Notes under the pieces: model-generated
Told to the model about the DNA's origin: nothing
What the model saw: only the letters and a program-made list of their open reading frames with translations
The model's database searches: none
Position numbers and translations under genes: made by a program
IMG/VR virus record: IMGVR_UViG_2713896899_000015
Length of the DNA: 15,377 bases
From: a virus
Taxonomy: Duplodnaviria > Heunggongvirae > Uroviricota > Caudoviricetes
Direction: 5' to 3' (one strand)
Shown here: positions 1 to 15,377 of the stretch, one piece after another
Numbering within the stretch: the stretch's first letter is position 1
Layout of the letters: each line of letters begins with the position of its first letter

Positions 1-174
1 TGTCAGTTATCATCTTCGGTTACGGTTATCGGCAGAAGGCTCTGCCGCTGACAAGAGCTTATTTGCCTGACCAATCTACTTCACATGATAGATAACTATC
101 ATTTATAGCATTTGGCTTATTAACCTTTATTTTTCATTGCGTTACAAACAATAAGTTCGTCAAAAACAGTAAAA

Positions 175-230
175 TTAACTACACCATTAACTACACCGTT
201 CCACGAACAATATCGAACAACCACGAACAA
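175..230. repeat. Direct-repeat array: 2 x 12 bp tandem (ttaactacacc) then 3 x 10-bp phased units ccacgaacaa / tatcgaacaa / ccacgaacaa
   Basis: Read directly at 175-198 and 201-230. The 10-bp unit array recurs at 8402-8431 in the same orientation. One-helical-turn phasing suggests a protein-binding platform. Confidence 0.75.
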
Positions 231-1543: not shown

Positions 1544-1837
1544 TTACGTACGCAGCCGCTCCGGTTTTTTCCACTGGTAAGTCTTTTTCTCGCTCTCCCG
1601 ATACATCTCCACGCGGCGACGATATGACAACAACTCCAGAACTCTGATCCGTATGTCGCGCATATCCACGCCGTTAATCTCGATACCGTCACGGCGCATC
1701 ACCTCAGCCACCACACGCGCGTAATTTTCGGCTATCACGCTGTCCGGCTGCGTGGCCTCCTGTTTGTCTGCTGTCTGGCTGGCTCCGGTAACACGGCGGA
1801 TTATTTTTAGTAGTTCGGTTTCGCTCATTCTCGTCAT
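1544..1837 (-). CDS. Hypothetical protein (97 aa) translationally coupled to the end of terL
   Basis: ATG at 1835-1837 overlaps the terL stop (ATGA). Last gene of the packaging operon. No recognisable motif. Stop codon sits in the centre of palindrome cgtacgta-t-tacgtacg (1536-1552). Confidence 0.5.
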   Translation of the reverse strand: MTRMSETELLKIIRRVTGASQTADKQEATQPDSVIAENYARVVAEVMRRDGIEINGVDMRDIRIRVLELLSYRRRVEMYRESEKKTYQWKKPERLRT

Positions 1838-3495
1838 ACCCCATCAAACGCCGCAAGCCGCTCTTTGTGGCTGTCGCTCATATCGAATGCAAAGTCCTCG
1901 TGCTCTGCCTGGAATGTGCCAAACGCCATCAGCGCCGCAACGCTCGGGTCTATCTTGTTGGATGATTTTTTCTTGTTCGGCTTGATATTGGCGTTCGCGT
2001 CACTCTGCATCACAACATTACTCATTGACCAGGCCAGCACCGGATCACCACGATGAACAATCACCTTCCGGTTAACAAAAACTTCGAACGATTTCGCCGC
2101 CGGACTGAAACGAAGGTATGTTTGCGGGAACGGCTCCACCTCAAATCCTGCCCCCTGTAGCTGCGTTCTCAGGTGCGTGGCGTTCCATGTATCGAAACCC
2201 ACCAGCCTGATATTGAAATTCTCTGCATCCGCCATGATGTCATCACGGATACGGTCATAATCAATGCAGTCACCCGGTGTTGTGCGTATCCAGCCCGCCT
2301 TTGCCCACTGGCGATAGATGGCGCGGTTTTTATTGGCAGGGTTCTGTAGCTGAAATTCCGGCAGATAGTGACGGGAAACCAGCATAATCTTTTTACCGAC
2401 CGGAAAGGCATAGCACACGCTGGAAATATCGCTGGTTGATGATAAGTCCAGCCCCGCGTAGCACTCCTGCCCGTATAAATCCGCCTCCGCGAACGTTCCG
2501 GCGCACTCCGCCCATGCACCGTTACCCATCCACGGCGTAGCCCCCTGACACCAGATATTGAATCGCTTGGTGAGCATTTCCACCCACTGCGACGGAATAC
2601 CCCGCGCTTTCTGGATGGTTGAGGCCAGTTTTTCACGATCGACGGAAACATCGATATTGGGATTCGCCTTTATCCACATCGCCGGATCGTCAACCTCGCT
2701 TTCATCATCCAGCTCGTAAATCAGCACGAACATGGATTCGTTCACCTCTTCACCATCCAGTATCTGGCAGCAATAGTCGTAGTGTTGTTTACAGGCTGAA
2801 ACAACGTTGCTCCCCGATGTGGTGATGGCAAATAACAGCCCCTCCGGGCGCGCCCCCATTCCCAGCTCAAGCGCGGAATAAACCCCGTTGTCAGGATGCA
2901 GGTGATATTCATCCACAATGGCGAGACTCGGGTTTGTCCCCTCAATGGTTGCCGCTTTTGCTGCCAGTGGCTTTAACAGGCTGTTGGTTTTCGGGTGTAT
3001 CACCTTGTGCGCCTGAATATTTACCCGCTTTCGTAACGGTCGGGATAAAAGGCACATCTGACGCGCATCATCAAACACGATCCGCGCCTGATCACGACTC
3101 ACGGCGGCGGTGTAAATATCCTGCTGCCCGTTTTCCATAACCAGAAACCAGTTAGCCAGGATAGCGGCGACCGTGGATTTGGCATTTTTTCGCGGTACTT
3201 CAATGAATGCGCTGGTGTATTTGCGCCGTCCGGTGGCCTTAACCTTAAAGCCCAGGATGCACGCAAAGGCGAACTGCTGCCACGGCTCCAGTTCAATGGG
3301 GCTACCGCGCATTGCACCTTTTACGTGCGGGCACACCCTGGAAAAGGCAATAAACCGCTCCACGACCTCCGGATCGAACGTGTAAAGGGGGTTTTCAAGG
3401 TCAGAAAAATACCGTTTAACGGCCTGTTTCAGTCGTTTACAGGCCGTAATTTTGCCGTTTTTTACGCCTTCTGCGTACTCATGCCAGGCGGTCAA
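1834..3495 (-). CDS. terL: Terminase large subunit (Terminase_1-type ATPase/nuclease), 553 aa
   Basis: Size and N-terminal ATPase region with P-loop-like KNAKST and a DEYH Walker-B-like motif. Follows terS with a 17-nt overlap. Apparent TTG start at 3493-3495 preceded by AGAGGA (Shine-Dalgarno). Confidence 0.88.
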   Translation of the reverse strand: MTAWHEYAEGVKNGKITACKRLKQAVKRYFSDLENPLYTFDPEVVERFIAFSRVCPHVKGAMRGSPIELEPWQQFAFACILGFKVKATGRRKYTSAFIEVPRKNAKSTVAAILANWFLVMENGQQDIYTAAVSRDQARIVFDDARQMCLLSRPLRKRVNIQAHKVIHPKTNSLLKPLAAKAATIEGTNPSLAIVDEYHLHPDNGVYSALELGMGARPEGLLFAITTSGSNVVSACKQHYDYCCQILDGEEVNESMFVLIYELDDESEVDDPAMWIKANPNIDVSVDREKLASTIQKARGIPSQWVEMLTKRFNIWCQGATPWMGNGAWAECAGTFAEADLYGQECYAGLDLSSTSDISSVCYAFPVGKKIMLVSRHYLPEFQLQNPANKNRAIYRQWAKAGWIRTTPGDCIDYDRIRDDIMADAENFNIRLVGFDTWNATHLRTQLQGAGFEVEPFPQTYLRFSPAAKSFEVFVNRKVIVHRGDPVLAWSMSNVVMQSDANANIKPNKKKSSNKIDPSVAALMAFGTFQAEHEDFAFDMSDSHKERLAAFDGV

Positions 3496-3835
3496 GCTCG
3501 TCCTCTTCCTCTGTTTCCGGTGGATTTCTGCGTCGGCTTACCGGGTCAAAACCCAGCAAAGAAGCCATTTTGATCATTATTCTTTCTGCGTCAGCCTTTG
3601 CGCTCAGGGCGGGGTTTCTGCTCTCGCTGCCCTGACTGTTAACAATGCTGAAGCCGCGCGTCGCAAGGTCTTCGACGGCTTTGCGGTATATGGAGTAGTT
3701 AACGCAATACAGTTCCAGATTGCTCCAGTCGGCGGGGGTAAGGTCTTCCCGCCCGGAAAGCTGGCGCGATTTTTCCTTCCACTGCCTGACCGCGATTTCA
3801 TCCAGGTAAGCGGGGGCTTTTGGTGGTCTTGCCAT
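3479..3835 (-). CDS. terS: Terminase small subunit, P27 family (118 aa from MARPPKAP...)
   Basis: N-terminus MARPPKAPAYL, internal LELYC..Y, and C-terminal NP....A.....K...LGFDP.SR then acidic tail, as in phage P27-family TerS. The ORF-track 5' extension to 3976 is judged non-coding. ATG at 3833-3835. Confidence 0.8.
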   Translation of the reverse strand: MARPPKAPAYLDEIAVRQWKEKSRQLSGREDLTPADWSNLELYCVNYSIYRKAVEDLATRGFSIVNSQGSESRNPALSAKADAERIMIKMASLLGFDPVSRRRNPPETEEEDELDRLA

Positions 3836-3954
3836 GTTCTTTTTTCGCCCAATTATTTTCAAAAAAATTCCCGTGCACAAAAATTTGAGGAGGCGGTCGG
3901 TGTCCGGCAGGGGCGGTTTCGTCCTGAAAACCTCCCCCACCCCCTCTGACGGCC

Positions 3955-4140
3955 TCACCAGCGATTGCGAAAACATTCCATGACCTCGCGGTCACGGTCG
4001 GTTAATCGCTTCGCTGTGGTGCGTTCTGTGCGCTCTGTCCTGTTGGCTTTGTGCCCTGTCTCCTGTGTCTTCCATAAGTCACGCTGCCTTATCAGTCCAC
4101 GTATCAGCCTGTTTTGCTCCTGTTCAGTCATCATCGCCAT
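3955..4140 (-). CDS. Possible small basic protein (61 aa) between HNH and terS; uncertain
   Basis: ATG at 4138-4140 overlaps the last 15 nt of the HNH gene in another frame. Weak Shine-Dalgarno, Arg/Thr/Glu-rich. Could instead be non-coding (this region is a cos-site candidate). Confidence 0.3.
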   Translation of the reverse strand: MAMMTEQEQNRLIRGLIRQRDLWKTQETGHKANRTERTERTTAKRLTDRDREVMECFRNRW

Positions 4141-4564
4141 ACATCCAGTCGTTACGATGTGCCGCCCGTTCTTCCTGCTCGCGATACATGCCCGCCTTAC
4201 GGTTCGCTTTCGTGGCTGGATCTTCCCGTGTCGTCTTACGGTTGTGGCACGTCTGGCACAATGCCTGGTGGTTCCACTCAGGCCAGAAGAGAACATCACC
4301 GCCGCCATTGATGGGAATGATGTGATCCACCACAAGAGCTGGCGTATAAATACCCTTAGCCAGACAACGCACGCATAACGGATTTTTTTTCAGGTACATG
4401 GCGCGGTATTTGTCCCACAGTCGGGAATACCCACGTGCGCGGCGGTGTCCCCGTCTGGCATCCTCTGCACGCCATGCAGCCCGCCTGTGCTCTTCACACT
4501 TGCCGGACTTCACGCGCTTATTACAGCCCGGCTCAGTGCATCGCCTTAATGGTTGCCATGGCAT
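4124..4564 (-). CDS. HNH endonuclease (terminase-associated), 146 aa
   Basis: Cys-rich N-terminus (C..C..C), then VDHIIP...WNHQALCQTCHNRKT, an HNH motif. Sits immediately upstream of terS-terL as in HNH-dependent cos packaging modules. TGATG coupling to the upstream gene. Confidence 0.9.
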   Translation of the reverse strand: MPWQPLRRCTEPGCNKRVKSGKCEEHRRAAWRAEDARRGHRRARGYSRLWDKYRAMYLKKNPLCVRCLAKGIYTPALVVDHIIPINGGGDVLFWPEWNHQALCQTCHNRKTTREDPATKANRKAGMYREQEERAAHRNDWMYGDDD

Positions 4565-4860
4565 CAGTACACCCCCACATCACGATAAACCGACCAGAGC
4601 GCGGAAATCGTCAGGGGAATTTCTTTTGTATCGGTATCGCCAAGCGTTGTCCGGTACTCGTACAGTTGCGAGATGTACATCAGGCAACCAATTTTTATTG
4701 CAGGGGTAAATTCCAGGCCGTCATCAAAACGCCTGCCAATATGCTTCTGGCATACCTCCAGCGCCGCGCTTATGTATGCCTGAATCAGTGTGTCTTCTGT
4801 GTTACCATCTATGCGGCAGTGAAGTTTGGCCTCTTCCAGGGTTATTTTTTCTGCTGTCAT
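4564..4860 (-). CDS. Head-tail connector protein, gp6-like (98 aa)
   Basis: N-terminus ITLEEAKLHCRIDGNTEDTLIQAYISAALEVCQ is characteristic of the gp6-like connector family. ATGA overlap with the upstream gene. Confidence 0.7.
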   Translation of the reverse strand: MTAEKITLEEAKLHCRIDGNTEDTLIQAYISAALEVCQKHIGRRFDDGLEFTPAIKIGCLMYISQLYEYRTTLGDTDTKEIPLTISALWSVYRDVGVY

Positions 4861-5195
4861 TTTTCTGTACCCACCTTTGCCAGAATTTCCAGCCGGGTTC
4901 TTTTCGCATCAGGTAAGGGGATCCCGATGATATTAAGCGTGCTCCCGGCAAAAGCGCCGGTAAGCACTTTCAGGCGACTGGCGGCGGATATGTCGCCACG
5001 ATAGCGAACCCATACCCGAATCGTTGCAGGTGCGGTTTCTGCGCCTGCGGTCAGTAATTCCCGTCCGCTGATCCCCTTGACCTCTGCCCAGATGGTTTCC
5101 CCTTCCGTCCATATCTGCTGGATCGCACCTGACGGCAGGCGCTGTGTGGTAAATGTCATAATCGTCACCCGGTCCCGCATATTTCCGGCTATCAT
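4857..5195 (-). CDS. Head-closure / head-tail adaptor protein (Phage_H_T_join-like), 112 aa
   Basis: Pattern RDRVTI...IWAEVKGISGRE...IRVWVRYRGDI...LNIIGI matches the head-closure family. ATGA overlap with the portal stop. Confidence 0.7.
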   Translation of the reverse strand: MIAGNMRDRVTIMTFTTQRLPSGAIQQIWTEGETIWAEVKGISGRELLTAGAETAPATIRVWVRYRGDISAASRLKVLTGAFAGSTLNIIGIPLPDAKRTRLEILAKVGTEK

Positions 5196-6415
5196 TCGTC
5201 ACCGCCCTTACTGTTCTTGCTGATTGTCACTTCCTGCTTCCATGCCTGGCTGAACTCGTCGCCACCTTCACGCGGCGGCATTCCCTCACGCTCACGGGCT
5301 TCGTTCGGATTCATGATCCCGTTCTTAATTCCTTTCTCATACGTGGCGTAACGTTCGGTAGGTGTGGCGCGCAGTAAATCGGCTGAATCAAACTCAACCA
5401 GATAACGGGTACCAGGTACGGGAGAAGCCACCAGCAAAGCAGCCTTGATTTGCTGTTCGAAGTTCGCCAGCCATGGGCGCATTGTCATGGTCAGAAACGC
5501 GCGGCTTGCCTCGCTGAAATTGCTGTAGGTGCTATTGCTGTATTCCTGCAGAAAAATAGGCGATACGTTGAACATCCGGGCGATGTCTTCAATGGAGAAG
5601 CGACGGGAGGCCAGCCATTCCGCATCCTGGTTACTCATTCCCAGTTGCTTGTAATCCATGCCCCCTTCAAGGATTGGCGTTTTTCCGGCATTTTTCGCCC
5701 CCTTGTAGCGTTCCAGAGCATCCAATGCCTGTTTACCTTTCACGCCGTCCAGCCATTCGCCTGACGTGATAATCCCTGCCGCCATCATGCCATCTTTCAT
5801 AATGCTGGCTCCGTGGCGCTGTTGAGCAAGGCCAAGCCCAAGTGCCTCACGGCAAATCGTGACAGGGGAGCGCCCCAGAAAGCCATCATCCGAGGCATAG
5901 CGGAGATGCAGAACTTCTTCCTGTAAATACGTGCGCACCGTTCCTGTATAGGGTTCGGTGATGGTATAGCGGTATTTGTGTGCGCCTGTGCGTTCCGGTA
6001 CAACACAACCCGGTGCATAAGGATGAAGTGATTTGGGCTGCCCGTCCCGCCCCCACTCAATAACCGCATAGGCGTTACCGTTCAGCAGGCAGTGACGCAT
6101 CATTGTGCGTTTAAACTGGTAAGGTGTCTGGCACGAATTAGGCTGCTCATTCAGCAGAATATCTACCGGATGACTGTCCAGCCATTCCCGCGCCTCCCTG
6201 CCCTTGTCATTACGTACCAGATACAGATAACAAGGCATCGTGGCCACCGCCTCAGCGATGACAGAAACCGCGTTCATCACTGCAGGCAATGATTCAGCCG
6301 TTCCGGCAGAAACATATTCTCCGGATCCGGTATTCGGTACACCGGACAGCGCCAGAAAATCATCAATGGACAGGTTACGCAGATCGCTTTTTTTACGACT
6401 AAAAGGCCACCACAT
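5192..6415 (-). CDS. Portal protein, HK97 family (407 aa from MWWPF...)
   Basis: Length and composition typical of HK97-type portals. ATG at 6413-6415 lies 1 nt after the protease stop. The ORF-track extension to 6505 uses a TTG and overlaps the protease gene, so is judged unlikely. Confidence 0.85.
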   Translation of the reverse strand: MWWPFSRKKSDLRNLSIDDFLALSGVPNTGSGEYVSAGTAESLPAVMNAVSVIAEAVATMPCYLYLVRNDKGREAREWLDSHPVDILLNEQPNSCQTPYQFKRTMMRHCLLNGNAYAVIEWGRDGQPKSLHPYAPGCVVPERTGAHKYRYTITEPYTGTVRTYLQEEVLHLRYASDDGFLGRSPVTICREALGLGLAQQRHGASIMKDGMMAAGIITSGEWLDGVKGKQALDALERYKGAKNAGKTPILEGGMDYKQLGMSNQDAEWLASRRFSIEDIARMFNVSPIFLQEYSNSTYSNFSEASRAFLTMTMRPWLANFEQQIKAALLVASPVPGTRYLVEFDSADLLRATPTERYATYEKGIKNGIMNPNEAREREGMPPREGGDEFSQAWKQEVTISKNSKGGDE

Positions 6416-6416
6416 A

Positions 6417-6977
6417 TCACAACCCCGCCAGTTCAGCCCAGCGATGACGATTATTTCCTGCCGGGCGTAATTCAGGGTGCTGTGCAAACAACGAACGGTG
6501 GGCAATCTCCACGCCGGATTCGGGATAAGCAGGCATCGACGTTATCGTGATTTCACGGAGTTCTGCGGCAGTTACGGTACGCAGATACGGTTTTTGCGCG
6601 ATACTCCACTCCTCGCATAATGCGCGAAAACCAAAGCTCATTCCTGTAATGTCGCCACGCTCCACCAGCGTAAGCACATCTTTTCCAAGCTGGGTATCCG
6701 GCGGTGTCAGCTCAAAACGTAACCCGGTGTTATCCTCAGTCAGTACCAGAGTGCCGGATTTGGTGCGCCCCAGCAGTTGGGTATAGTCATGCTCATACAG
6801 GCAGCGCACATCATTACCCGCCGCCAGATAGTCAGCAAAAGCCCCCGGCGTGAACTGTTCGCGGAATTCGTCCCAGATAATTTCTGAAAGGCTGTTCCAG
6901 CGAACGGCATAACCCACCAGTTTTTTATCGCTGGCGGTCAGTTCAGATGTGCGGATTTCAAAATCGGTGTTTTTCAT
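6417..6977 (-). CDS. Prohead protease, HK97 family (186 aa)
   Basis: Motifs GYAVRWNS...GxxxxLxEDxxGL...GMSFGF are characteristic of HK97-family prohead maturation proteases. GGAG Shine-Dalgarno 8 nt upstream of the ATG. Confidence 0.85.
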   Translation of the reverse strand: MKNTDFEIRTSELTASDKKLVGYAVRWNSLSEIIWDEFREQFTPGAFADYLAAGNDVRCLYEHDYTQLLGRTKSGTLVLTEDNTGLRFELTPPDTQLGKDVLTLVERGDITGMSFGFRALCEEWSIAQKPYLRTVTAAELREITITSMPAYPESGVEIAHRSLFAQHPELRPAGNNRHRWAELAGL

Positions 6978-6997
6978 CGGTGTACTCCATAAAGCTG

Positions 6998-7019
6998 AAA
7001 AAGGAGGCCGCAGCCTCCT
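6998..7019 (-). terminator. Intrinsic terminator-like hairpin (partial terminator / mRNA stabiliser) just after the capsid gene
   Basis: On the minus strand: AGGAGGC-tgcg-GCCTCCT followed by TTTT. 7-bp stem, 4-nt loop, U-tract. Lies between the capsid stop (7032) and the protease start (6977). Confidence 0.35.
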
Positions 7020-7031
7020 CCTTACTCATGA

Positions 7032-8201
7032 CTAGCCAGCTTTCATTTCCAGAATTTTGATGGCGTTTGAATCCACCACACCACCGCCCAGATATTTATC
7101 CGTGTGGACCTTGTAGAATCCGGGTTCAGTAATGTTGTCCGGTCGGGTGCGAATCCCTGTTACATGATCAACGATGAAATAACCACGACTGAAATCGCCA
7201 ACCGCTAGCGGTGCTTTTCCTGCGCCGATGTCCGGCATGGACTCCAGGCAGTAAACAGGACGACCAAGCAACATATCCGGCGCACCTTCTTTAAGGCTGT
7301 CGCGCCAGATATAATCGCCGTTCTCATTTTTCAGCTTCTGTAGTGTCCCTGCCGTGCCCGAGTTCATCACCCAGACGGCATTTTTGCGGTATTTCGCTTT
7401 CAGCTTGTAGAGAATGTCGATCAGTTCGTCCGCTGTAATGGCGGTTCCACTTGCCGCTACCATTTTTTCAATGGTGCCAAAAGCGCGGGTTTTGTCACTG
7501 GTCGCCGCACGGGTGTAAGCCATGAATCCTTTCGGCTTGCCGTTACCGTCGCCATTAACAAAATCATCCTCTTCGGTGCTGGCGAACGTGTCGGCAATTT
7601 CGGAGGATAACCAGCCCAGAATATCCACCTCTGAAAAATCCAAGATTTCCTGCGTGGTTTTCGGGTAGGCGTAGATCGGATTCAGCTTGATGGTTACGCG
7701 TTCAATTTTCGGGGTGTTGGTTTCGCTGCGCGCGCTGCCTTCTGTGCCTCTTCCTACAGTTGCGCCGCCAGTGGAAACCAGTTTCTGAAACTCATTTGAT
7801 TTTGCGGTCTTCACGGTCGCGATCACGCGCATAACACTGTCATCCTGTAGCTGGCGCATGACTTCGCGATCAAGCTCAGGAATTACGGTATATCCGCCAT
7901 CCCTGCCGCTGTCAGTGCTGGTGGACAGTGATCGCACATCTCCGGTTACGATATAGTTACGCAATTCATCAGATGATAATTTCTGGATGCCCGTTCCTGG
8001 CTTGCTGCGTTCTTCATCAGCCACAGACTCGAGGCGGGAAATTTCTGTGTCGAGGGAATCGGCTTTTGCACGCAGTTCATCAAACTGTTTGCCCTCGTCA
8101 TCGTTCAGGCTGCGGTTTTCACTGTCGGCTTTTTCCAGCAGGGATCGCATCTGGTTTTTCAGGGCGGTTTTTTGCTGGCGGAGTTCGATTAATTTCTTCA
8201 T
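7032..8201 (-). CDS. Major capsid protein, HK97 fold, with N-terminal coiled-coil delta (scaffold) domain (389 aa)
   Basis: N-terminal ~100 aa is charged and heptad-like (delta domain). C-terminal region GTAGTLQKL...LLGRPV...GDFSRGYFIVD is typical of HK97-family capsid proteins. No separate scaffold gene. Confidence 0.9.
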   Translation of the reverse strand: MKKLIELRQQKTALKNQMRSLLEKADSENRSLNDDEGKQFDELRAKADSLDTEISRLESVADEERSKPGTGIQKLSSDELRNYIVTGDVRSLSTSTDSGRDGGYTVIPELDREVMRQLQDDSVMRVIATVKTAKSNEFQKLVSTGGATVGRGTEGSARSETNTPKIERVTIKLNPIYAYPKTTQEILDFSEVDILGWLSSEIADTFASTEEDDFVNGDGNGKPKGFMAYTRAATSDKTRAFGTIEKMVAASGTAITADELIDILYKLKAKYRKNAVWVMNSGTAGTLQKLKNENGDYIWRDSLKEGAPDMLLGRPVYCLESMPDIGAGKAPLAVGDFSRGYFIVDHVTGIRTRPDNITEPGFYKVHTDKYLGGGVVDSNAIKILEMKAG

Positions 8202-8401
8202 GAAGGTTTTCTCGTATTGGTTAAGATTCAGGACGTGAAACCAACACGGAGGGAGCGCCGCCCGACACTCTCGGCATCTCGCAGATCAACCCGGCATCGC
8301 GCAGGGGGTCAGGCGGCATTGTGGCGGCTCACGTCTGAGTGCCACACGCCAACATATACATAAAAATCAGTATGTAAACATCAGCCAGAATCACCGAACA
8401 A

Positions 8402-8470
8402 CCTGGAACAACCACGAACAAATAATTTACAAAACCTGAAAAAAAGACCTGAAAAAAAATCTAGGCCTTT
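8402..8470. repeat. 3 x 10-bp phased units caccgaacaa / cctggaacaa / ccacgaacaa (8402-8431) plus tandem 13-bp acctgaaaaaaa(g/a) x2 (8445-8470), in the capsid-upstream intergenic gap
   Basis: Near-identical to the array at 201-230 (shared 17-mer ccacgaacaa...). Located in the 275-bp noncoding gap 8202-8476 upstream of the capsid gene. Candidate activator-binding site or late promoter. Confidence 0.7.
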
Positions 8471-8476
8471 ATCGCT

Positions 8477-8725
8477 TTATTGTTTCACTGGATCCCGCAT
8501 TCTGCGTCTTATTTTCCACAGATATTCGATCATCGCTTCCACCTGCTCACGGTTGGTTGCGAAAATTTCCCCGGTCAGTGAGCTGCGCAGAAAATCATGA
8601 TGATCCACAACAAACAACGCATCGGAAGAAAGCAGACGGCGATATTTTTTTGCTGTCGTGGTTTCCAGATCATCAAAACCATGAAACTTTTTATGTTGCT
8701 GAACTTCTTCAAATGTCACTGGCAT
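8477..8725 (-). CDS. Hypothetical protein (82 aa)
   Basis: ATG at 8723-8725 with a GGGGG Shine-Dalgarno 5 nt upstream. Overlaps the ProQ/FinO gene stop by 10 nt. No recognisable motif. Confidence 0.55.
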   Translation of the reverse strand: MPVTFEEVQQHKKFHGFDDLETTTAKKYRRLLSSDALFVVDHHDFLRSSLTGEIFATNREQVEAMIEYLWKIRRRMRDPVKQ

Positions 8726-9246
8726 GTATCCCCCTTTGCTGCCCGGCGCTGGCGCTTGTGCTTCTCATTCAGCGCCATCAGCCGCGTTTCTGCCTCCTGC
8801 TGTTCCTGTGGTGTCACTTCCCCACATGGCTGGCCTTTCAGGTCGTAGCGTACCCCACCAGCTATTAAGGCGCGGTAATAGCGCGGAGACTGCGCATAGG
8901 ATGCCAGCGTCGCACGTAATGCCCCCGGCCCGAATGTCAGCCCCCTGGCGGCGATATCCTGCATCAGGTCGTCGAATATCCCCACCTTAAGCGGCTTCGG
9001 TGCTTCCCGGCTGAATAATTCTGGCCACAATTCAATAAGGCGGTTAACGCGTCTGCGGTTTTTGCGCTGGCGTTTGGTCATATGCCGCCACGCTGTCGCC
9101 CCTGTGGGTTTCTGCTGTGCGTTCTGATTGCCGGGTATCACTTTATGCGCCGATGTGGTTTTATCCTGCTGCTGTGCCGCCTGCGGTATTTTCTGCGGCG
9201 TGCCGTAAATGCCTTTCGGTTTTCGGTTAATGGTCATCTTTGTCAT
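8716..9246 (-). CDS. ProQ/FinO-domain RNA-binding protein (176 aa; alternative start at 9237)
   Basis: C-terminal half KPLKVGIFDDL...LRATLASYAQSPRYYRALIAGGVRYDLKGQPCGEV aligns by eye with E. coli ProQ (RPLKIGIFQDL...LRSALRLYTSSWRYL...RVDLDGNPCGEL). Basic, low-complexity N-terminus. Confidence 0.85.
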   Translation of the reverse strand: MTKMTINRKPKGIYGTPQKIPQAAQQQDKTTSAHKVIPGNQNAQQKPTGATAWRHMTKRQRKNRRRVNRLIELWPELFSREAPKPLKVGIFDDLMQDIAARGLTFGPGALRATLASYAQSPRYYRALIAGGVRYDLKGQPCGEVTPQEQQEAETRLMALNEKHKRQRRAAKGDTCQ

Positions 9247-9282
9247 GCCTTCCCCTGTAATAACTCTGTTCGCTGTTGTGAA

Positions 9283-9708
9283 TTAAAACGGTATGTTGTC
9301 CCCGTACGGATCATCGTGCTGGCCTGTCTGTTGTTTTGCCCTGTTCAGTGCGTCAGTGGCCTGGCCCTGTTGACCTTTTTTGCCGCCCGGTCGCGCCGTT
9401 CGCGCACTGATTACGCTGTCTGCAATAACCTGCCAGCCCTGCCGCGTTTCGCCGTTCTGCCCTGTCCACTGGCTTACCTGCATGTTACCCACCACGCTCA
9501 CCAGTTCGCCTTTGCGGTGTTTTGCCAGTGCGTCGGCCTGTCTGCCAAACGCCAGGACAGATAACCACATCGTCGCCGTTCCGTCATCTGCCTGGCTGCA
9601 CGGCAGGGGAACCGCCATACTCGCCATCGCCATTTGTGTCCCCTTGCTGGTGGTCTTTAACTGCGGGTCAGCCACCAGCCGCCCGTAAGCCGCTATCTGT
9701 GCTGTCAT
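9283..9708 (-). CDS. ssb: Single-stranded DNA-binding protein (SSB), 141 aa
   Basis: OB-fold pattern GRLVADPQL...W.SVLAFGRQA..LAKHRKGELVSVVG.MQVSQWTGQNGETRQ, Gly/Gln-rich linker, and C-terminal acidic tail DDPYGDNIPF (the SSB DIPF signature). Confidence 0.85.
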   Translation of the reverse strand: MTAQIAAYGRLVADPQLKTTSKGTQMAMASMAVPLPCSQADDGTATMWLSVLAFGRQADALAKHRKGELVSVVGNMQVSQWTGQNGETRQGWQVIADSVISARTARPGGKKGQQGQATDALNRAKQQTGQHDDPYGDNIPF

Positions 9709-9770
9709 GCTGTCTGTTCTCCGGTTTTAACGTTGATGGTTACGCTTGTTTACACCCTTACGGTGAAATT

Positions 9771-9919
9771 CTGCGGGTTATAATCGCGCTTTTGCGGGTT
9801 ATAACTGCCGTTTTGCGGGTTATTTTGGGTATTTTGCGGGTTACGATTTTTCTTTCATTCCTTTAATAATCAAATGGATACTGATTTATCCACAGAAATA
9901 ACCCGCATAACCCGCAAAA
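9771..9919. repeat. Iteron-type replication origin (cluster B) immediately downstream of the primase gene
   Basis: Four forward iterons tgcgggtt(at) at 9772, 9793, 9814 and 9835, exactly 21 bp apart. AT-rich core 9845-9896. Two contiguous reverse iterons ataacccgca / taacccgcaaaa at 9897-9919. Sits between primase stop (9945) and ssb start (9708), as in PICI pri-rep-ori. Confidence 0.65.
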
Positions 9920-9944
9920 TTTTCACTCTACACGCGAGAAAAAA

Positions 9945-12080
9945 TTAATCTTCTTCGCTTTCTGGCTGGAACATCAGCACGTAAAAAACATGCTGCTTCC
10001 CCCCAATTTTGCCGAGCGCCTTTTTCTTGTAACGGCGATCGTTACCCGCTTCCAGCATTCCGGCAGCACTCAACGCGCGGGCAAAGTGAGACGGATTAAA
10101 TCCCTGTGCTATCTCACCCTCAAATACATGCGGGAATGTGTAAAAACGGAACTCGTCATCTTCGTTTCTGATACTCCCCTTTCTGTATCCGGCAAGCTCT
10201 TTAATCGGTAAATCACGCTCGTCAGAGTTGGGCCAGGGAAGGTATCTGCTGAATCCGAACGACGCTAAAAAAGCCTCTGCCTGTTCAACCATCTGTTTAA
10301 ACTCCCTGTTACCCGTGCCGAACTCCTTCACCCAGGCATTAAAATTATGCTGTATGGCATCGCGGCATTCCTGCTCATCCCAGCCAGTAACATGACCTGA
10401 AAGCACAAGCGCGGCCTCCAGTATGGCAAATCGCTCCCCCACACGGTGAACCTGTTCGCCGTAGCTCTCCGGTATCAGGTTGCGCCACCGCTCACGGCAT
10501 GTCCTTACCGTGTCCTTTGCCTCCTGCTGGTGTTCTGCCAGCCATTTAACCCACTCACGACCCGCTGCCCCGTGATTTTCTGTCCAGGCATCCTTTAACG
10601 CGTCTGCGTGCGCCTTTCCGGTGCTGTATTCGTGAAATTGTGTGGCTTTTTCCATCGGCACGTTAAGCAGACGGACAAGCTGCCCCGCTTTAATTTTTAT
10701 CCCTTCCGTTTTGAGGAATGTTTCAACGTCCATTTCTCCGGTACTGATTGCCACCGTGCGCCAGTGTTTGATCTCCCTGTTGCCGCCGTCCTTCGCCCCC
10801 TGTAATTTCCCCGAACCGTTAAACAGCGTATAAGCCGACGTGGACACTTCCCGCGCGTTTCCGGCCTGACCTATTTCATCCAGGGGTAACAGCCCGTCAT
10901 TGTGCGCCTCTGCCTCGTTGGCGATGCCTAACGCTGTACCGTACCAGGTCAGCCGTTGCGCGTCCGGCTCTCCCCATAAACTGGATGCGATGTTCTGTGT
11001 GGTGGTTTTCCCTGCCGATGACTGTTCGAAAAGATGTACCCCGAAGCCGTCAGCACCCACCAGCCCGATTAATGGTGCGGATAATGATACCGCCACACCC
11101 AGCATCATGGACGGATTACCACCAGCCAACCGCGCAACGGTATCGCGCCAGCCCTCCGCCGTTCCTGCCACGGAATAACCATTAACAGCGGCAGTTTTTC
11201 CGGTAAACAGGACTGGCTTTTCGCAATCACCAATGACCGAACCGTCCGGCATGATGTACGCGCCAAAATGCCAGCCCGTTGTTGTGCTTAACTGCCATTC
11301 CTCATGGTTTCCGCTTAACTGCATCCAGTCAGCCAGGATAGCCCTGTATTTACCGTTGGTTGTCACATTCAGTCCGTGGTCTTTCAGCAGCCGCCAGCCG
11401 TCACGGTCGCCAATGCCCCCACACGGGATCGCCATTGTGATGACTTCATGGTTTGCTGGTTTTTTCCAGCGCATCACGCGGTAATGCTCTTTGCCGATTG
11501 TCCCCGTTCCCAGTAGTTCAAGCGGGGAACATAACCACGTCTCAGGCCGGATAATTTCGCCTGACTGCTTATCCACTTTTGGCGTTACCCAGAAAACACC
11601 ATCGGCACGGCTTTCAACGCGGGGCTTTAATTCATCATCACCCGGGCTTGTGGTGGTTTTTTTCTTTACCGGAAGTTTAATTACCAGATCTGCAGAAAGA
11701 TTCTGACGCTCAACGTTCAGATAGCGCCGCCAGTTCTCGCATTTCTGACCGTGCATTCCTTCAGGGTAAAAATTCGCATCCTGAATATCTGCCGCCGCCA
11801 GCTTCTGACCGATCTTTTTGGTCTCCACTAAATCCAGTTCTCCGGCCTGGTACAGCCTTACGCGTTTTTTCCCATCCGGAACAATTTTCAGCGCATCAAG
11901 TTCGGCAAGCTGATTTGGCCCAAGCCACACAGGCGGCACATCATCGCCAGATGCGGGGCCGTCCTGCTCCTGCCACTGTTTTGCATGTGCCCACGCATCA
12001 CTACCCGCGAAAATAATTACCTCTGTGTCTTTGTGTTTTATTCCGCGTGGTTGTTTTTTTACGTTCGGTGCCAGTTTCAT
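9945..12080 (-). CDS. Replication initiator, primase/helicase-type (PICI Pri-Rep / P4 alpha-like), 711 aa
   Basis: Large multidomain protein with a P-loop (SSAGKTT) in the central region. Directly upstream of the iteron origin. ATG at 12078-12080 overlaps the preceding gene stop (ATGA). Domain family not verified by search. Confidence 0.75.
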   Translation of the reverse strand: MKLAPNVKKQPRGIKHKDTEVIIFAGSDAWAHAKQWQEQDGPASGDDVPPVWLGPNQLAELDALKIVPDGKKRVRLYQAGELDLVETKKIGQKLAAADIQDANFYPEGMHGQKCENWRRYLNVERQNLSADLVIKLPVKKKTTTSPGDDELKPRVESRADGVFWVTPKVDKQSGEIIRPETWLCSPLELLGTGTIGKEHYRVMRWKKPANHEVITMAIPCGGIGDRDGWRLLKDHGLNVTTNGKYRAILADWMQLSGNHEEWQLSTTTGWHFGAYIMPDGSVIGDCEKPVLFTGKTAAVNGYSVAGTAEGWRDTVARLAGGNPSMMLGVAVSLSAPLIGLVGADGFGVHLFEQSSAGKTTTQNIASSLWGEPDAQRLTWYGTALGIANEAEAHNDGLLPLDEIGQAGNAREVSTSAYTLFNGSGKLQGAKDGGNREIKHWRTVAISTGEMDVETFLKTEGIKIKAGQLVRLLNVPMEKATQFHEYSTGKAHADALKDAWTENHGAAGREWVKWLAEHQQEAKDTVRTCRERWRNLIPESYGEQVHRVGERFAILEAALVLSGHVTGWDEQECRDAIQHNFNAWVKEFGTGNREFKQMVEQAEAFLASFGFSRYLPWPNSDERDLPIKELAGYRKGSIRNEDDEFRFYTFPHVFEGEIAQGFNPSHFARALSAAGMLEAGNDRRYKKKALGKIGGKQHVFYVLMFQPESEED

Positions 12081-12364
12081 TTCTTACCCCCTGCGACCAG
12101 CATTTCACGGATTTTGCGGATATAGCTTGCTGCACGTTTCTGATTTACGGCTTTACGATGGCCCACCAGCGTGAAATCACGCCGGAATTGATAAACAGGC
12201 ATCACGCAGTCATATTCGTAACCTTCACGGCGGTAGGTGATGCGCCGTTCTGCCACGCCTTTAATCGTTACCATGCCGCCATATTTATCGCGGTAAATAT
12301 CGCCGTTCATAAATTCAGGACGAGCGGGGCCGCTGGCAGTAACGCCAGAATTTTTATTTTTCAT
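12077..12364 (-). CDS. Hypothetical protein (95 aa)
   Basis: ATG at 12362-12364, GGAG upstream, ATGA coupling to the primase gene. Basic. No recognisable motif. Confidence 0.6.
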   Translation of the reverse strand: MKNKNSGVTASGPARPEFMNGDIYRDKYGGMVTIKGVAERRITYRREGYEYDCVMPVYQFRRDFTLVGHRKAVNQKRAASYIRKIREMLVAGGKK

Positions 12365-12369
12365 GTTTT

Positions 12370-12597
12370 TTATTCTCCGGTGTGCTGCGCTTTATTATTC
12401 TCGTGAATTGCCATCACTGTATTTAATTCATTAATTACTGGCGTTAATAATGTGTGCACGGCAGAAAACATCATGGGATATGATTCATCGCCATTTTCCT
12501 GCACTTCCATTAACTTAAGTAATAATGCCTCCATTTCCTTTGCGCGGATTAATGCGTTTTCAGAATGAACAAGAACATCAAAGGGTATTTTATGCAT
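12370..12597 (-). CDS. Hypothetical protein (75 aa)
   Basis: ATG at 12595-12597 overlaps the upstream gene stop (ATGCATAA). Helical-looking, acidic. No recognisable motif. Confidence 0.6.
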   Translation of the reverse strand: MHKIPFDVLVHSENALIRAKEMEALLLKLMEVQENGDESYPMMFSAVHTLLTPVINELNTVMAIHENNKAQHTGE

Positions 12598-12793
12598 GAC
12601 TCACCCCCTGACGAATACGGGCGGCGAATACCATCACGCAGCCAGCCGGGGATTGCTGGCGTGCTTCCTGTTCGCTGGTGGCCTCAATGGTAATCACGCG
12701 CGGTTGTGCCGTGCTCAGGGCGATAAAACGCCAGATATATTTATTCAGGTTGTGCGAGTCCCGCCCTTGCGGGTGTGTGGTATGATTTAACAT
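12590..12793 (-). CDS. Hypothetical protein (67 aa), first gene of the leftward replication operon
   Basis: ATG at 12791-12793 preceded by a strong GAGGT Shine-Dalgarno. The 306-aa ORF in the track is this frame extended upstream through the divergent promoter and RHH gene, which is judged spurious. Confidence 0.55.
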   Translation of the reverse strand: MLNHTTHPQGRDSHNLNKYIWRFIALSTAQPRVITIEATSEQEARQQSPAGCVMVFAARIRQGVSHA

Positions 12794-12992
12794 AGCTACC
12801 TCGATACGCTTTCTATCGTTGGTGGTTAGAAGCCCTGCGAGTGATAACGACACTTGCGGGGCTTTGCATTTATGCACCTTGACAACCTCAAGGTGTGGCC
12901 CACTATATTCTTTAGGTGTGGCCCACGTCAAGAGTTTTATTTGTGCTTTTTCTGTGTATACTGTCCCCCACCAATCCAACAGAGGAATAGAA
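12794..12992. promoter_or_regulatory. Divergent promoter/operator region between the replication operon (-) and the RHH gene (+)
   Basis: Consensus -35 TTGACA at 12879-12884 with candidate -10 TATATT at 12904-12909 (19-bp spacer). Two perfect 13-bp direct repeats aggtgtggcccac at 12891-12903 and 12914-12926 overlap the -10 and start region. TATACT at 12957-12962. GAGG Shine-Dalgarno before the RHH ATG. Confidence 0.5.
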
Positions 12993-13172
12993 ATGGCAAC
13001 GGGTACAACAAACGCAAAATCACAAGCTCTAAAGGCTCGTGTACCACACGAAATAGTAAACGCCATGGAATCAGTGAAAGAATCAGGCGAAAGCACATCA
13101 CAATTCATCATTGCGTCAATGCAAGGCGAGATCAAACGCCGCCAGCGACGCAAAGCCAAGGAGTCAGAATAA
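12993..13172 (+). CDS. Ribbon-helix-helix (CopG/Arc/MetJ-like) DNA-binding protein, 59 aa; candidate island repressor/regulator
   Basis: ATG at 12993 with GAGGAATAGAA Shine-Dalgarno. Sequence KARVPHEIVNAMESVKESGESTSQFIIASMQGEI fits the RHH pattern (beta-strand RVP, helix, G.S.S..I, helix). Confidence 0.65.
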   Translation: MATGTTNAKSQALKARVPHEIVNAMESVKESGESTSQFIIASMQGEIKRRQRRKAKESE

Positions 13173-13229
13173 TCACTATCAGCGCCGTGGTGTGAGTAAC
13201 TACGGCGCATTGCTATGCAGGTGCTTACC

Positions 13230-13409
13230 ATGAACGATAAAGAGTTAAAAAAAACACCACCACAAACACTGAAAGGACAGCGCAAAAAGATAGCGCATGA
13301 GCATGAATCAGAAAGATTCGCCCCCTGTTCTTTTGCTCTTGAGAAATTCCTTAAGGAGCACAAGAAAAAGCTATCATTGCAAACCAGGGAACGAACCGAA
13401 TCTGACTGA
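13230..13409 (+). CDS. Hypothetical small Lys-rich protein (59 aa), co-transcribed with the RHH gene
   Basis: ATG at 13230 with AGGTG 6 nt upstream. Followed by an intrinsic terminator. A stem gcgccgt/acggcgc (13182-13208) lies between the two genes. No recognisable motif. Confidence 0.4.
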   Translation: MNDKELKKTPPQTLKGQRKKIAHEHESERFAPCSFALEKFLKEHKKKLSLQTRERTESD

Positions 13410-13473
13410 TCACATTGCCCACCAGCCAGCAAATCGCTATGATGTTCGGGCTTATGTTTAGTGTTTTCCCATT

Positions 13474-13501
13474 GGCGACCGCCCCCGGTCGCCTTTGTTT
13501 T
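13474..13501 (+). terminator. Rho-independent terminator of the RHH operon
   Basis: Stem ggcgaccg (13474-13481), loop cccc, stem cggtcgcc (13486-13493), then tttgtttt. There is no U-tract on the other strand, so it is unidirectional. Confidence 0.7.
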
Positions 13502-13520
13502 ATGTGTCATATACTCCCCT

Positions 13521-13730
13521 TTACGCTGCCTTGCCTGAATTAATGCGATCCCGGCTTTTAACCCATTCCATAACCTCGGACAGCAGCCAACCTACAGAAC
13601 GACCGCCCAGATTAAGGCGTGACGGAAATCGCCCTTTTTTCTCCAGTTCGTAGCGTGTAGTGCGACACACTCCAGTTAACTTACGACATTCATCCTCACG
13701 GATTACGCGATCTTCATTTATTTCACGCAT
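13521..13730 (-). CDS. alpA: AlpA-family (MerR/excisionase-like) transcriptional regulator, 69 aa
   Basis: LTGVCRTTRYELEKKGRFPSRLNLGGRSVGWLLSEVMEWVKSR matches the AlpA/Xis helix-turn-helix pattern (..T.Y.....G.FP....LG.R.VGW...EV.EW...R). ATG at 13728-13730 with AGGT Shine-Dalgarno. The track's longer ORF starts at a GTG (13817) with no Shine-Dalgarno. Confidence 0.8.
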   Translation of the reverse strand: MREINEDRVIREDECRKLTGVCRTTRYELEKKGRFPSRLNLGGRSVGWLLSEVMEWVKSRDRINSGKAA

Positions 13731-13817
13731 ACAAAAACCTACATAAAAATTACGTATATAAACTTTTCTCTTAGCTGTAGATATATGAGATCGGATATTA
13801 CTTAGATTCTTTTTCAC

Positions 13818-14138
13818 CTCTTAAATTAAAAACACAACCTTGCTAAAGGCTTGTTCGCTAAGGTTCGTAGAAGCTCGTTAGTGTTTAAAATCGTGTCACG
13901 AGTTTTTAAGCGACGCAACAAAAAATGTCGTCACTTGGCATTACGCTTGAATTATCTCATTAAAAACAAATAGATAAATCATCAGGTATTGGAACAATCA
14001 AGAAATAGCTAATAAGGGTTTAGTAGGGTGCATTTCAATTTTTTCGATGGTTGACAAATAAAAAATTAACGAACTTGACCGATATTTAGCGTTTTATTCA
14101 CGGCTGTAATCTCTTAAAGAAAAAACAGCCGTAATTTG
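13818..14138. promoter_or_regulatory. AT-rich int-alpA intergenic region with inverted repeat acggctgt-N17-acagccgt (14100-14132); probable alpA promoter/operator
   Basis: 321-bp gap at about 70% AT between the int stop and alpA. Contains TTGACA at 14051-14056 (+) and TTGACA on the minus strand at 14133-14138, plus an 8-bp-arm inverted repeat. No confident -10/-35 pairing could be resolved by eye. Confidence 0.3.
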
Positions 14139-15377
14139 TCAAGAATTTTGGGTGTAAATTCGCGGGGTCATAACAACGATTTTTTCATCATTGTTCTGGA
14201 GAAGCTCGAGACGGTCTACCCATAGATTAAGAGCATCACGTTTTGCATCAAGATAACGGGAGTGGTTATAGACTCGTTGCATCCCTGGCATCTGGTGGGC
14301 TGTAAGCTGCTCGACAATATGCGGATCCACGCCTAAATCGTTCAGCATGGTTGTAAATGTGTGCCGGATATCGTGTAACGTCCAGGGGGCTTGATTAATT
14401 CGTCTGTGCGCTGTTCTTCCGTACTCTGCTACGGATGATTGCCCTTTCAGTTCTCCAAGCAATAAGCCCGTGTGCCTGTTCTTCTCCACCAGCTGCGTGA
14501 CGAACGGCAGAATGCTTTCCGGTATTGGTCTGAATATGGCGACCTTCGTTTTGCTGTGCTCCTTCGGTACTGTCCAGAGCATTTCCTTAAAATCCCACTC
14601 CTGCACCTCAGAGCGCCTTAGCTCAGTGGTACGGCATCCAAAAACAATCAGGAGGCGAATTAGGGCGCTGTAGTACGGCGGGAAGATTTTTTCATCCAGT
14701 GCGCGGAGTAGTTCCCCAAGCTCTTTGTTTGTCAGTACACGCTCACTTATTTCTGCTTTTTTCCCCACATCACCTACGACCATATCATCAAGAACGTTGC
14801 TGATTGCGTATCGTCGTTTTCGGCAGTACTTAAGCGCCTGTTTGCATACCTGTAGCAAAAATCCGGCTGATACCGGATTACGCTTAGCAAGCTGGTCAAA
14901 ACAGGCCAGCCAGTGGCGTAGCTCGCATTTTTCCAGTGGCATAGCGCCAATCTGGCTAATTATGTGTTTATTGATCCGGCTTTTCAGTGATTCGTAGTCA
15001 GTGCGCTTTTCCTTTGCGTACGATTCAAGCCAGTAAGTGAGCGCTTCCTTAACCGTCACGGGGGCTAACGCATCCTGTACAGCATGATTAAGTTCATAAC
15101 GCGGATTTTTCCCCTCAGCCAGCCAGGCGCGACACTGTGCCGCTTTTTCCCTGGCAGCTTTCAGGCTCAGATCGGGATAATTGCCCAGCCTCAGACGTTC
15201 CGGTGATATCTGCCTACCAGTTCCGGCCCTGTAAGTGAAATACCAGGTTAACAGGCCATTGATTGAATGCCTTACGCTAAGGTTGCCACCATCATTAAAA
15301 AAGGTGCTTTTTGTGGTTGGTGATCCGCTTAATTTTCGTAAAAGAGTGTCGCTAAGTCTATGAATTGCCCTGCTCAT
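14139..15377 (-). CDS. int: Tyrosine recombinase / site-specific integrase, P4-like (412 aa; start codon on the window edge)
   Basis: C-terminal catalytic region HDIRHTF...LTAHQMPGMQRVYNHSRY contains the H-x-x-R and terminal Tyr nucleophile context of tyrosine integrases. Size is typical of P4-family integrases. The ATG occupies 15375-15377, so a further upstream start cannot be excluded. Confidence 0.9.
   Translation of the reverse strand: MSRAIHRLSDTLLRKLSGSPTTKSTFFNDGGNLSVRHSINGLLTWYFTYRAGTGRQISPERLRLGNYPDLSLKAAREKAAQCRAWLAEGKNPRYELNHAVQDALAPVTVKEALTYWLESYAKEKRTDYESLKSRINKHIISQIGAMPLEKCELRHWLACFDQLAKRNPVSAGFLLQVCKQALKYCRKRRYAISNVLDDMVVGDVGKKAEISERVLTNKELGELLRALDEKIFPPYYSALIRLLIVFGCRTTELRRSEVQEWDFKEMLWTVPKEHSKTKVAIFRPIPESILPFVTQLVEKNRHTGLLLGELKGQSSVAEYGRTAHRRINQAPWTLHDIRHTFTTMLNDLGVDPHIVEQLTAHQMPGMQRVYNHSRYLDAKRDALNLWVDRLELLQNNDEKIVVMTPRIYTQNS

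Follow-up and report, generated by a model that had tools for sequence, protein, structure and literature searches.

A very probable capsid-forming phage-inducible chromosomal island, collinear with EcCIEDL933, at the yljB-clpS site of an Escherichia coli-type chromosome

The 15,377-nucleotide (nt) virus record IMGVR_UViG_2713896899_000015, the whole of which is referred to here as the window, very probably contains almost the whole of an intact capsid-forming phage-inducible chromosomal island (cf-PICI), inserted between yljB and clpS in an E. coli-type chromosome. A preliminary description of the window, made from its letters alone, had proposed either such an island or a new relative of one. 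The first proposal holds, as all of the published genomic features of cf-PICIs are present and the gene order is collinear with that of the prototype, EcCIEDL933; given this collinearity and homology the second is not needed, and we regard the island as an ordinary member of a family described in 2022-2023, real but already known. The biology of cf-PICIs has been reported in two preprints (Alqurainy et al., 2022; He et al., 2025, bioRxiv 10.1101/2025.02.11.637232). They are important mobile elements, which pass between species by joining capsids of their own, filled with DNA, to the tails of foreign phages, and the SatelliteFinder catalogue contains 969 of them, in 13% of Enterobacteriaceae genomes.

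The evidence that carries this reading comes largely from comparison with EcCIEDL933, an island of 15.4-15.5 kb in E. coli O157:H7 EDL933, where it is located between roxA and phoQ (NZ_CP008957.1, ~1,680,150-1,695,600). EcCIEDL933 encodes an integrase (int), alpA, a replication protein (rep), capsid, protease, portal, connectors, an HNH endonuclease, and the small and large terminase subunits (TerS and TerL), without tails. It has been shown to be induced in a helper- and alpA-dependent manner, to build small capsids from island-encoded proteins and to package exclusively itself, helper tails being its only dependence. A cryo-electron microscopy report describes its capsid as T=4 and 47.5 nm, with the capsid protein cleaved at residue 93. 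The window follows EcCIEDL933 gene for gene, with 18 proteins at 43-94% amino acid (aa) identity, among which 11 of the 11 core proteins are 54-94% identical, so that both homology and synteny with an experimentally validated member, one of the marks of a cf-PICI, are present. The two islands also share a size of ~15.5 kb, the iteron TGCGGGTTA, the putative arm repeat GGTGTAGTTAAT and TGTTC repeats upstream of the capsid gene. They differ in chromosomal attachment site (attB; roxA-phoQ in EcCIEDL933 versus yljB-clpS here) and in cargo (PerC versus a ProQ/FinO-domain protein).

Published criteria for cf-PICIs comprise a size of 10-18 kb, integrase, regulation and replication modules, an eight-gene packaging module, and no lysis or tail module, while SatelliteFinder defines cf-PICIs by 11 core components and forbids tails and holins. 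All eight packaging genes were found here, intact and in canonical order; together with int, alpA and the primase/replication gene pri-rep they appear to make up the 11 SatelliteFinder core components in the Type A arrangement. These genes, called from profile matches to Pfam, PHROG and NCBIfam, and the replication origin are as follows, with percentages giving identity to the EcCIEDL933 protein.

14139-15377, minus strand: P4-type tyrosine integrase (Int), 412 aa, its ATG being the last codon of the window; Pfam Arm-DNA-bind_3 and Phage_integrase; 77%
13521-13730, minus strand: AlpA regulator/excisionase, 69 aa; Pfam Phage_AlpA 2e-16; 66%
9945-12080, minus strand: Pri-Rep primase/helicase, 711 aa; Pfam DUF927 1e-45, phrog_1139 (DNA primase) 1e-178; 90%
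9766-9922: replication origin immediately after pri-rep, with four direct and two inverted copies of TGCGGGTTA around a spacer
7032-8201, minus strand: HK97-fold major capsid protein, in which the N-terminal ~100 aa form a scaffold (delta) domain; Pfam Phage_capsid 2e-71; 64%
6417-6977, minus strand: prohead serine protease, S78, HK97 family; Pfam Peptidase_S78 9e-46; 63%
5192-6415, minus strand: portal, 407 aa, with the start as called in the identical contig described below; Pfam Phage_portal 7e-93; 81%
4857-5195, minus strand: head closure protein/head-tail adaptor; Pfam Phage_HCP 2e-18; 54%
4564-4860, minus strand: head-tail connector, gp6-like; Pfam Phage_connect_1; 68%
4124-4564, minus strand: HNH endonuclease, packaging accessory; Pfam HNH 9e-10; 84%
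3479-3835, minus strand: TerS, P27 family, 118 aa, in a reading frame open to 3976; Pfam Terminase_4, TIGR01558; 81%
1834-3495, minus strand: TerL, 553 aa, TTG start; Pfam TerL_ATPase and TerL_nuclease; 94%

The gene content thus agrees with what the preliminary description had read. The full HK97-type head set and the HNH/TerS/TerL packaging trio were all recovered by Pfam at very low E-values on the minus strand, the P4-like integrase (at one end of the island, with the AlpA regulation module), AlpA and the primase/helicase all have Pfam or PHROG matches, and the proposed iteron origin is borne out by 11 copies of TGCGGGTTA in the window against 0.17 expected, six of them directly downstream of pri-rep. 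This arrangement, which supplies the island with a replication module of its own, matches that of tested Gram-negative PICI origins, in which two sets of iterons flank an AT-rich region (PMC6092414). Likewise, no tail, tape-measure, baseplate, holin or endolysin family was found in the annotated proteins or in the 65 further open reading frames (ORFs), each 50 aa or longer, of the other frames. The ~20 genes are all intact and without internal stops, so that the degraded capsid or terminase pseudogenes against which the same description had cautioned are not seen. Its view that the genes share one operon does not hold: every substantial gene does lie on the minus strand, but with two plus-strand genes and several sizeable intergenic gaps, including the origin region and 275 nt upstream of the capsid gene, they do not form a single operon. 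A scan of the window for sigma-70 promoters and terminators gave nothing above shuffled expectation.

The boundaries of the island are equally clear. The whole window is 100% identical to contig BJCT01000003.1 (locus L003) of assembly GCA_005403485.1, an E. coli-like draft, and one of the many public contigs on which the Pri-Rep primase protein was found. Alignment of the empty yljB-clpS site of K-12 to this contig gave two blocks that overlap by 17 nt, ATGATAGTTAT(C/T)TATCA, a sequence of which K-12 has a single copy and the contig two (6520-6536 and 21979-21995; one mismatch). Between these attachment (att) cores lies an insertion unit of 15,459 bp, and nothing else is inserted. Relative to the window, the boundary features are the following.

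1-85: chromosomal flank upstream of clpS, outside the island; 97% identical to the K-12 yljB-clpS intergenic region
86-102, minus strand: att core ATGATAGTTATCTATCA, the clpS-proximal copy, from alignment to the K-12 empty site
168-184 nt past the window end: second att core, upstream of int, found in L003

The island therefore runs from window position 86 to ~185 nt past the window end. The extent first given for it, 1834-15377, lies within these limits but does not define them, and the att direct repeat for which a search had been suggested is the 17-nt core, single in K-12. The flanks, in which contiguous tail or lysis genes would have made the island part of an ordinary prophage, contain only housekeeping genes in the identical contig: ybjD, ybjX, macA, macB, cspD and yljB precede the integrase gene in the 6.7 kb on the int side, and clpS, clpA, infA, aat, cydC and cydD follow the last island gene, a 97-aa ORF, in the 8.4 kb on the clpS side. 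As the unit is bounded by att sites and flanked by housekeeping genes, the ordinary-prophage reading fails; a temperate HK97-like prophage would carry tail, tape-measure and lysis genes contiguously over 35-45 kb, whereas this insertion, at 15.46 kb, is of the discrete, att-bounded kind and falls within the ~10-18 kb of cf-PICIs. No tRNA gene was detected in the window, nor did any Rfam family match any part of it at E up to 0.1, so attB is intergenic rather than a tRNA gene. The flanking sequence at 1-85 is matched in 5425 of 5426 complete E. coli genomes.

Could the island instead be a decayed HK97-like prophage, stripped of its tail and lysis modules and surviving as a cryptic remnant that no longer has its own life cycle? 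Its head and packaging genes do belong to the HK97 phage type. HK97, HK106 and HK022 share with it an HK97-fold capsid whose N-terminal scaffold region is cleaved, an S78 protease and cos packaging that depends on HNH, and the equivalent EDL933 element was, we presume, long treated as a cryptic prophage. HK97, however, has a T=7 capsid, a ~40-kb genome and tail and lysis genes of its own, and we consider such a decayed origin highly improbable. Decay fits poorly with some 20 genes that are all intact, with att sites that bound exactly 15.46 kb and leave no residual phage DNA, and with collinearity to a satellite whose mobility has been shown by experiment. The int, alpA, pri-rep and iteron module is of PICI rather than lambdoid type, and islands with this same compact layout occupy two attB sites, each with a different integrase, one group being at ilvG. 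Among 50,697 phage records, moreover, neither the capsid protein nor TerL is more than 37% identical to that of any true tailed phage, in line with the published observation that cf-PICI packaging proteins are less than 40% identical to phage proteins. The few closer records that are named as phages are satellite-sized (10.7-16.5 kb), the exception being a Klebsiella record of 106 kb in which the module occupies one end.

Still harder to credit, if anything, is a classical PICI or P4-like satellite whose capsid comes from the helper, its own capsid genes serving only for interference with that helper. The module of int, alpA and pri-rep with its origin (ori) is common to classical E. coli PICIs such as EcCICFT073 and EcCIED1a, which also share AlpA-dependent induction by a helper, and both the terminal non-coding region and the ProQ/FinO cargo of the window recur in a classical-type PICI (L021). 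Classical PICIs, however, have no capsid, portal, connectors or TerL of their own and redirect the terminase and capsid of the helper. SatelliteFinder forbids portal, adaptor and connector in classical PICIs and takes TerL as a mark of cf-PICIs; all four are present here. In the prototype, each such gene except 1792, a small gene of hypothetical product, has been found to be needed for transfer of the island, and none by the helper. The resemblance to P4 lies in its P4-type integrase, AlpA/Vis-type regulator and iteron-binding primase-helicase, and in a layout of two iteron units that recalls P4 ori and crr. P4 itself lacks capsid, portal and terminase genes and resizes P2 capsids via Sid, whereas the window has its own structural genes and no sid, psu, delta or epsilon family was found in any of its ORFs.

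Hardly more credible is an autonomous, helper-independent producer of tail-less particles resembling a gene-transfer agent (GTA), for while the next-best Protein Data Bank (PDB) matches to the capsid protein after entry 9gyi are from the Rhodobacter GTA, and cf-PICIs are reported to release tail-less DNA-filled capsids, no lysis genes were found in the window, and the island has an integrase, a replicon of its own and a specific cos-type terminase, which to our knowledge GTAs lack. The tail-less capsids published for cf-PICIs are, furthermore, non-infective until they meet phage tails.

Several points nevertheless weigh against a simple equation of the window with a working cf-PICI of the prototype kind. 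The adaptor (54%) and connector (68%) diverge from those of EcCIEDL933, so that the type of helper tail used may differ. The capsid maturation motif SxGxxAD of EcCIEDL933 and HK97 is inexact, the window capsid having STSTDSGRD with a 2-aa insertion. TerL begins at TTG, and the start of TerS (118 or 165 aa) is ambiguous. The position of cos rests on sequence conservation and the ends of one database record, and the life cycle set out below is drawn by analogy with EcCIEDL933.

Following the experiments on this homologous island, from which each step is taken, the cf-PICI in the window would remain quiescent until a helper phage switches on alpA. AlpA, with the P4-type integrase, would then excise the island at the 17-nt att core and would turn on the island genes, and Pri-Rep would bind the TGCGGGTTA iterons and replicate the resulting circle. 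Small procapsids, expected to be T=4 and ~47 nm, would be assembled from the capsid protein, S78 protease and portal that the island itself encodes, and its own HNH-TerS-TerL complex, cutting an island-specific cos probably located between the 61-aa ORF and terS, would package only island DNA into them. Finally, adaptor and connector would close the head and dock it onto helper-made tails, with lysis also supplied by the helper.

The expectation of a small T=4 capsid follows by analogy from the 64% full-length identity of the capsid protein to that of EcCIEDL933, together with the matching genome size. Pfam Phage_capsid spans residues 102-385, and the best match in the PDB is 9gyi (385 aa, 'Major head protein'; 1.7e-155, residues 1-386), which we take to be the EcCIEDL933 capsid given the cryo-electron microscopy report and the equal length of the 385-aa gene. 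The loop at prototype residues 227-248 aligns in the window capsid with a gap of only one residue.

In cf-PICIs it is the adaptor and connector that govern the choice of tail (He et al., bioRxiv 10.1101/2025.02.11.637232), and the divergence of these two proteins from EcCIEDL933 thus suggests that the tail partner may differ. The adaptor and connector allele of the window is a minority one, with matches of 95% identity or higher in just 17 of the 5426 complete E. coli genomes. In one related island (L005), otherwise 98-99% identical, the block at ~4768-5233 is replaced by a single 100-aa connector. This exchange matches the tail-specificity swapping that has already been published. In EcCIGN02175 and KpCIDSM30104, members of the same cf-PICI family that we compared through their published pattern, the variable regions lie after alpA, on either side of the packaging operon, and within the adaptor and connector genes (He et al., bioRxiv 10.1101/2025.02.11.637232); this pattern recurs between the window island and its 98-99% identical relatives. 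The window therefore supplies a well-delimited, intact example at yljB-clpS with a minority adaptor/connector allele and ProQ/FinO cargo, usable as an annotation and as a point of comparison in studies of tail specificity and of origins, although it opens no new question alone.

Some phage-labelled records resemble or contain cf-PICIs. 'Escherichia phage vB_KppS-Ant' (LR881103.1, 16.5 kb; capsid 76%, TerL 83%) and 'Pasteurella phage Pmp8' (15.3 kb; capsid 61%, TerL 70%) have the same packaging module as the window, with a different integrase, primase and cargo genes, and were deposited as phages. To these can be added Pmp7 (10.7 kb; OR544139.1 and OR544138.1 for Pmp7 and Pmp8) and the 106-kb 'Klebsiella phage P12620-1' (PQ569648.1), in which a cf-PICI-like module occupies 90,984-105,251. 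The 765-aa gene after TerL in vB_KppS-Ant is annotated as a tape-measure protein and is probably cargo.

The remaining genes of the island, several of which (SSB, ProQ/FinO, DUF4222, Icd-like, and the 61-aa and 97-aa ORFs) go beyond those described previously, are listed below, again with the identity to EcCIEDL933 where available.

13230-13409, plus strand: second small plus-strand ORF, 59 aa; phrog_21027 3e-14
12993-13172, plus strand: YlcI/YnfO family small protein; NCBIfam NF041551 8e-19, above cut-off; phrog_949
12590-12793, minus strand: Icd-like protein, 67 aa; NCBIfam phage_ICD_like 1.5e-19; phrog_6196
12370-12597, minus strand: 75-aa ORF, called as a gene in all related loci; phrog_2196
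12077-12364, minus strand: DUF4222 protein; Pfam 1e-24; 61%
9283-9708, minus strand: single-strand DNA-binding protein (SSB); Pfam SSB 3e-16; 69%
8716-9246, minus strand: ProQ/FinO-domain protein, accessory cargo; Pfam ProQ 4e-25
8477-8725, minus strand: conserved 82-aa ORF; phrog_1957 1.6e-36; 43%
3955-4140, minus strand: 61-aa ORF between the HNH and TerS genes; phrog_3173 1e-28; 80%
1544-1837, minus strand: conserved 97-aa ORF after TerL; phrog_1561 1.5e-48; 72%

The non-coding features to which we now turn are these.

103-1543: gene-free island end, a variable or cargo slot after the packaging module, empty here; no Pfam, PHROG, NCBIfam or Rfam match
174-229, minus strand: putative recombination arm sites, with GGTGTAGTTAAT twice (174-197) and three TGTTCG at 10-nt spacing (205-229); found by TRF
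438-612: second ori-like unit, in which an AT-rich spacer of 76 nt separates three direct from three inverted iterons
3836-3954, minus strand: putative cos region, the 119-nt gap from the 61-aa ORF to terS, placed by a conserved block and record ends
8396-8420, minus strand: TGTTC(G/C) in three phased copies, ~200 nt upstream of the capsid gene

The cohesive ends of cf-PICI DNA are published, and in the window the cos site probably lies within the 119 nt that separate the 61-aa ORF from terS. A block within this gap, GGGGTGGGGGAGGTTTTCAGGAC, is conserved in three diverged islands, and record LR881103.1, which derives from particles, has linear ends that map to the gap, near window position 3921. 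When the window was searched for the lambda/phi80 cosN, GGGCGGCGACCT, with up to two mismatches, only a chance-level match was obtained, inside the capsid gene, and there is thus no sign of an additional lambdoid helper cos on the island. The reading frame of TerS stays open for 47 more codons upstream, into the putative cos. In a three-way alignment the conserved start is ATGGCAAGACCACC, with an ATG at 3835 that gives 118 aa, and in EcCIEDL933 the upstream stretch is in another frame; gene calls of 165 aa are for these reasons probably over-extended. The 61-aa ORF beside the gap would be, judging from gene numbering that sets the capsid gene as 1786, the positional homologue of EcCIEDL933 gene 1792, a mutant of which showed severely reduced island transfer in published work.

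The only mildly novel leads offered by the window concern its split origin and the repeat motifs that it shares with EcCIEDL933. To replicate, P4 requires both ori and crr, two iteron regions that lie apart. Besides the origin next to pri-rep, the island has the ori-like unit at 438-612, which lies 9.2 kb from pri-rep within the 1.4-kb gene-free island end. This unit is kept in nine of nine related loci, including the islands with another integrase at ilvG, and it is 80.6% identical to the second of the two tandem ori units of EcCIEDL933. Both units stand in tandem beside pri-rep in EcCIEDL933 (L013, 26193-26508), whereas here one of them has its place at the far end of the island.

Repeats of two kinds accompany these units. 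Tandem copies of GGTGTAGTTAAT are found near both ends of the island (window 174-197; L003 6657-6683) and also near both ends of EcCIEDL933 (L013, 20282-20302 and 35510-35530); they are probably arm-type integrase sites, to judge from their position, though the two islands differ in attB. The phased pattern TGTTC-N5-TGTTC occurs four times in the window against 0.03 expected, the significance residing in the phased pattern only, as the 9-mer GGTTGTTCG alone is not enriched (6 versus 4 expected). TGTTC repeats are present near the other att as well, just upstream of int (L003 6542-6556 and 6615-6629), and those upstream of the capsid gene keep that position in EcCIEDL933 (L013, 27884-27908). 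The arm-site motifs of 174-229 recur at the two ends of EcCIEDL933. The latter (8396-8420 in the window) are a candidate regulator-binding site for the packaging operon, and both the TGTTC and the GGTGTAGTTAAT repeats are candidate binding sites of AlpA or Int. It is conceivable, though we would hold it only tentatively, that this cf-PICI lineage has a split, two-site mode of replication. If so, the distal unit at 438-612 could act in a manner analogous to P4 crr; alternatively it could be a sink for Pri-Rep, through which copy number is set, or else incompatibility with any co-resident PICIs that share Pri-Rep. As a separate and equally tentative possibility, the TGTTC repeats at both att arms and upstream of the capsid operon could link excision to activation of the packaging operon through one protein, AlpA or Int.

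In some near-identical islands (L016, L017; Logan contigs) the DUF927 Pri-Rep is replaced by a D5_N/DUF5906 primase, which indicates that the replication module is swapped independently of the packaging module. Parts of the gene-free region at 103-1543 recur in other E. coli satellites in which this position is occupied by cargo genes, and the region holds several internal repeats; for small RNAs it was checked with Rfam only. No defence-system family was recovered when the accessory proteins were scanned with PADLOC, so the 'immune cargo' slots appear to be without a known defence gene here.

Among the small genes between alpA and pri-rep, a frame of 306 aa (12590-13510, minus strand) is probably spurious, with only its last 67 aa, the Icd-like protein, called as a gene, since family matches were obtained only for this C-terminus and for the antisense genes on the plus strand. 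A codon-position substitution test of the 306-aa ORF versus the antisense YlcI-like genes, made against EcCIEDL933, was flat in both frames. The 59-aa ORF at 13230-13409 is 63% identical (aa) to a homologue that is likewise placed antisense in EcCIEDL933. The 306-aa frame overlaps two plus-strand YlcI/YnfO-like genes, and RefSeq has a 247-aa ORF similarly antisense in EcCIEDL933.

The ProQ/FinO-domain protein resembles an RNA chaperone, but its NCBIfam scores do not reach the cut-offs set for FinO or ProQ proper. Its gene is missing from two of the related loci (L001, L002) and from EcCIEDL933, where PerC fills this slot before the capsid gene; it is also present in the classical-type PICI L021, which lies near yejO.

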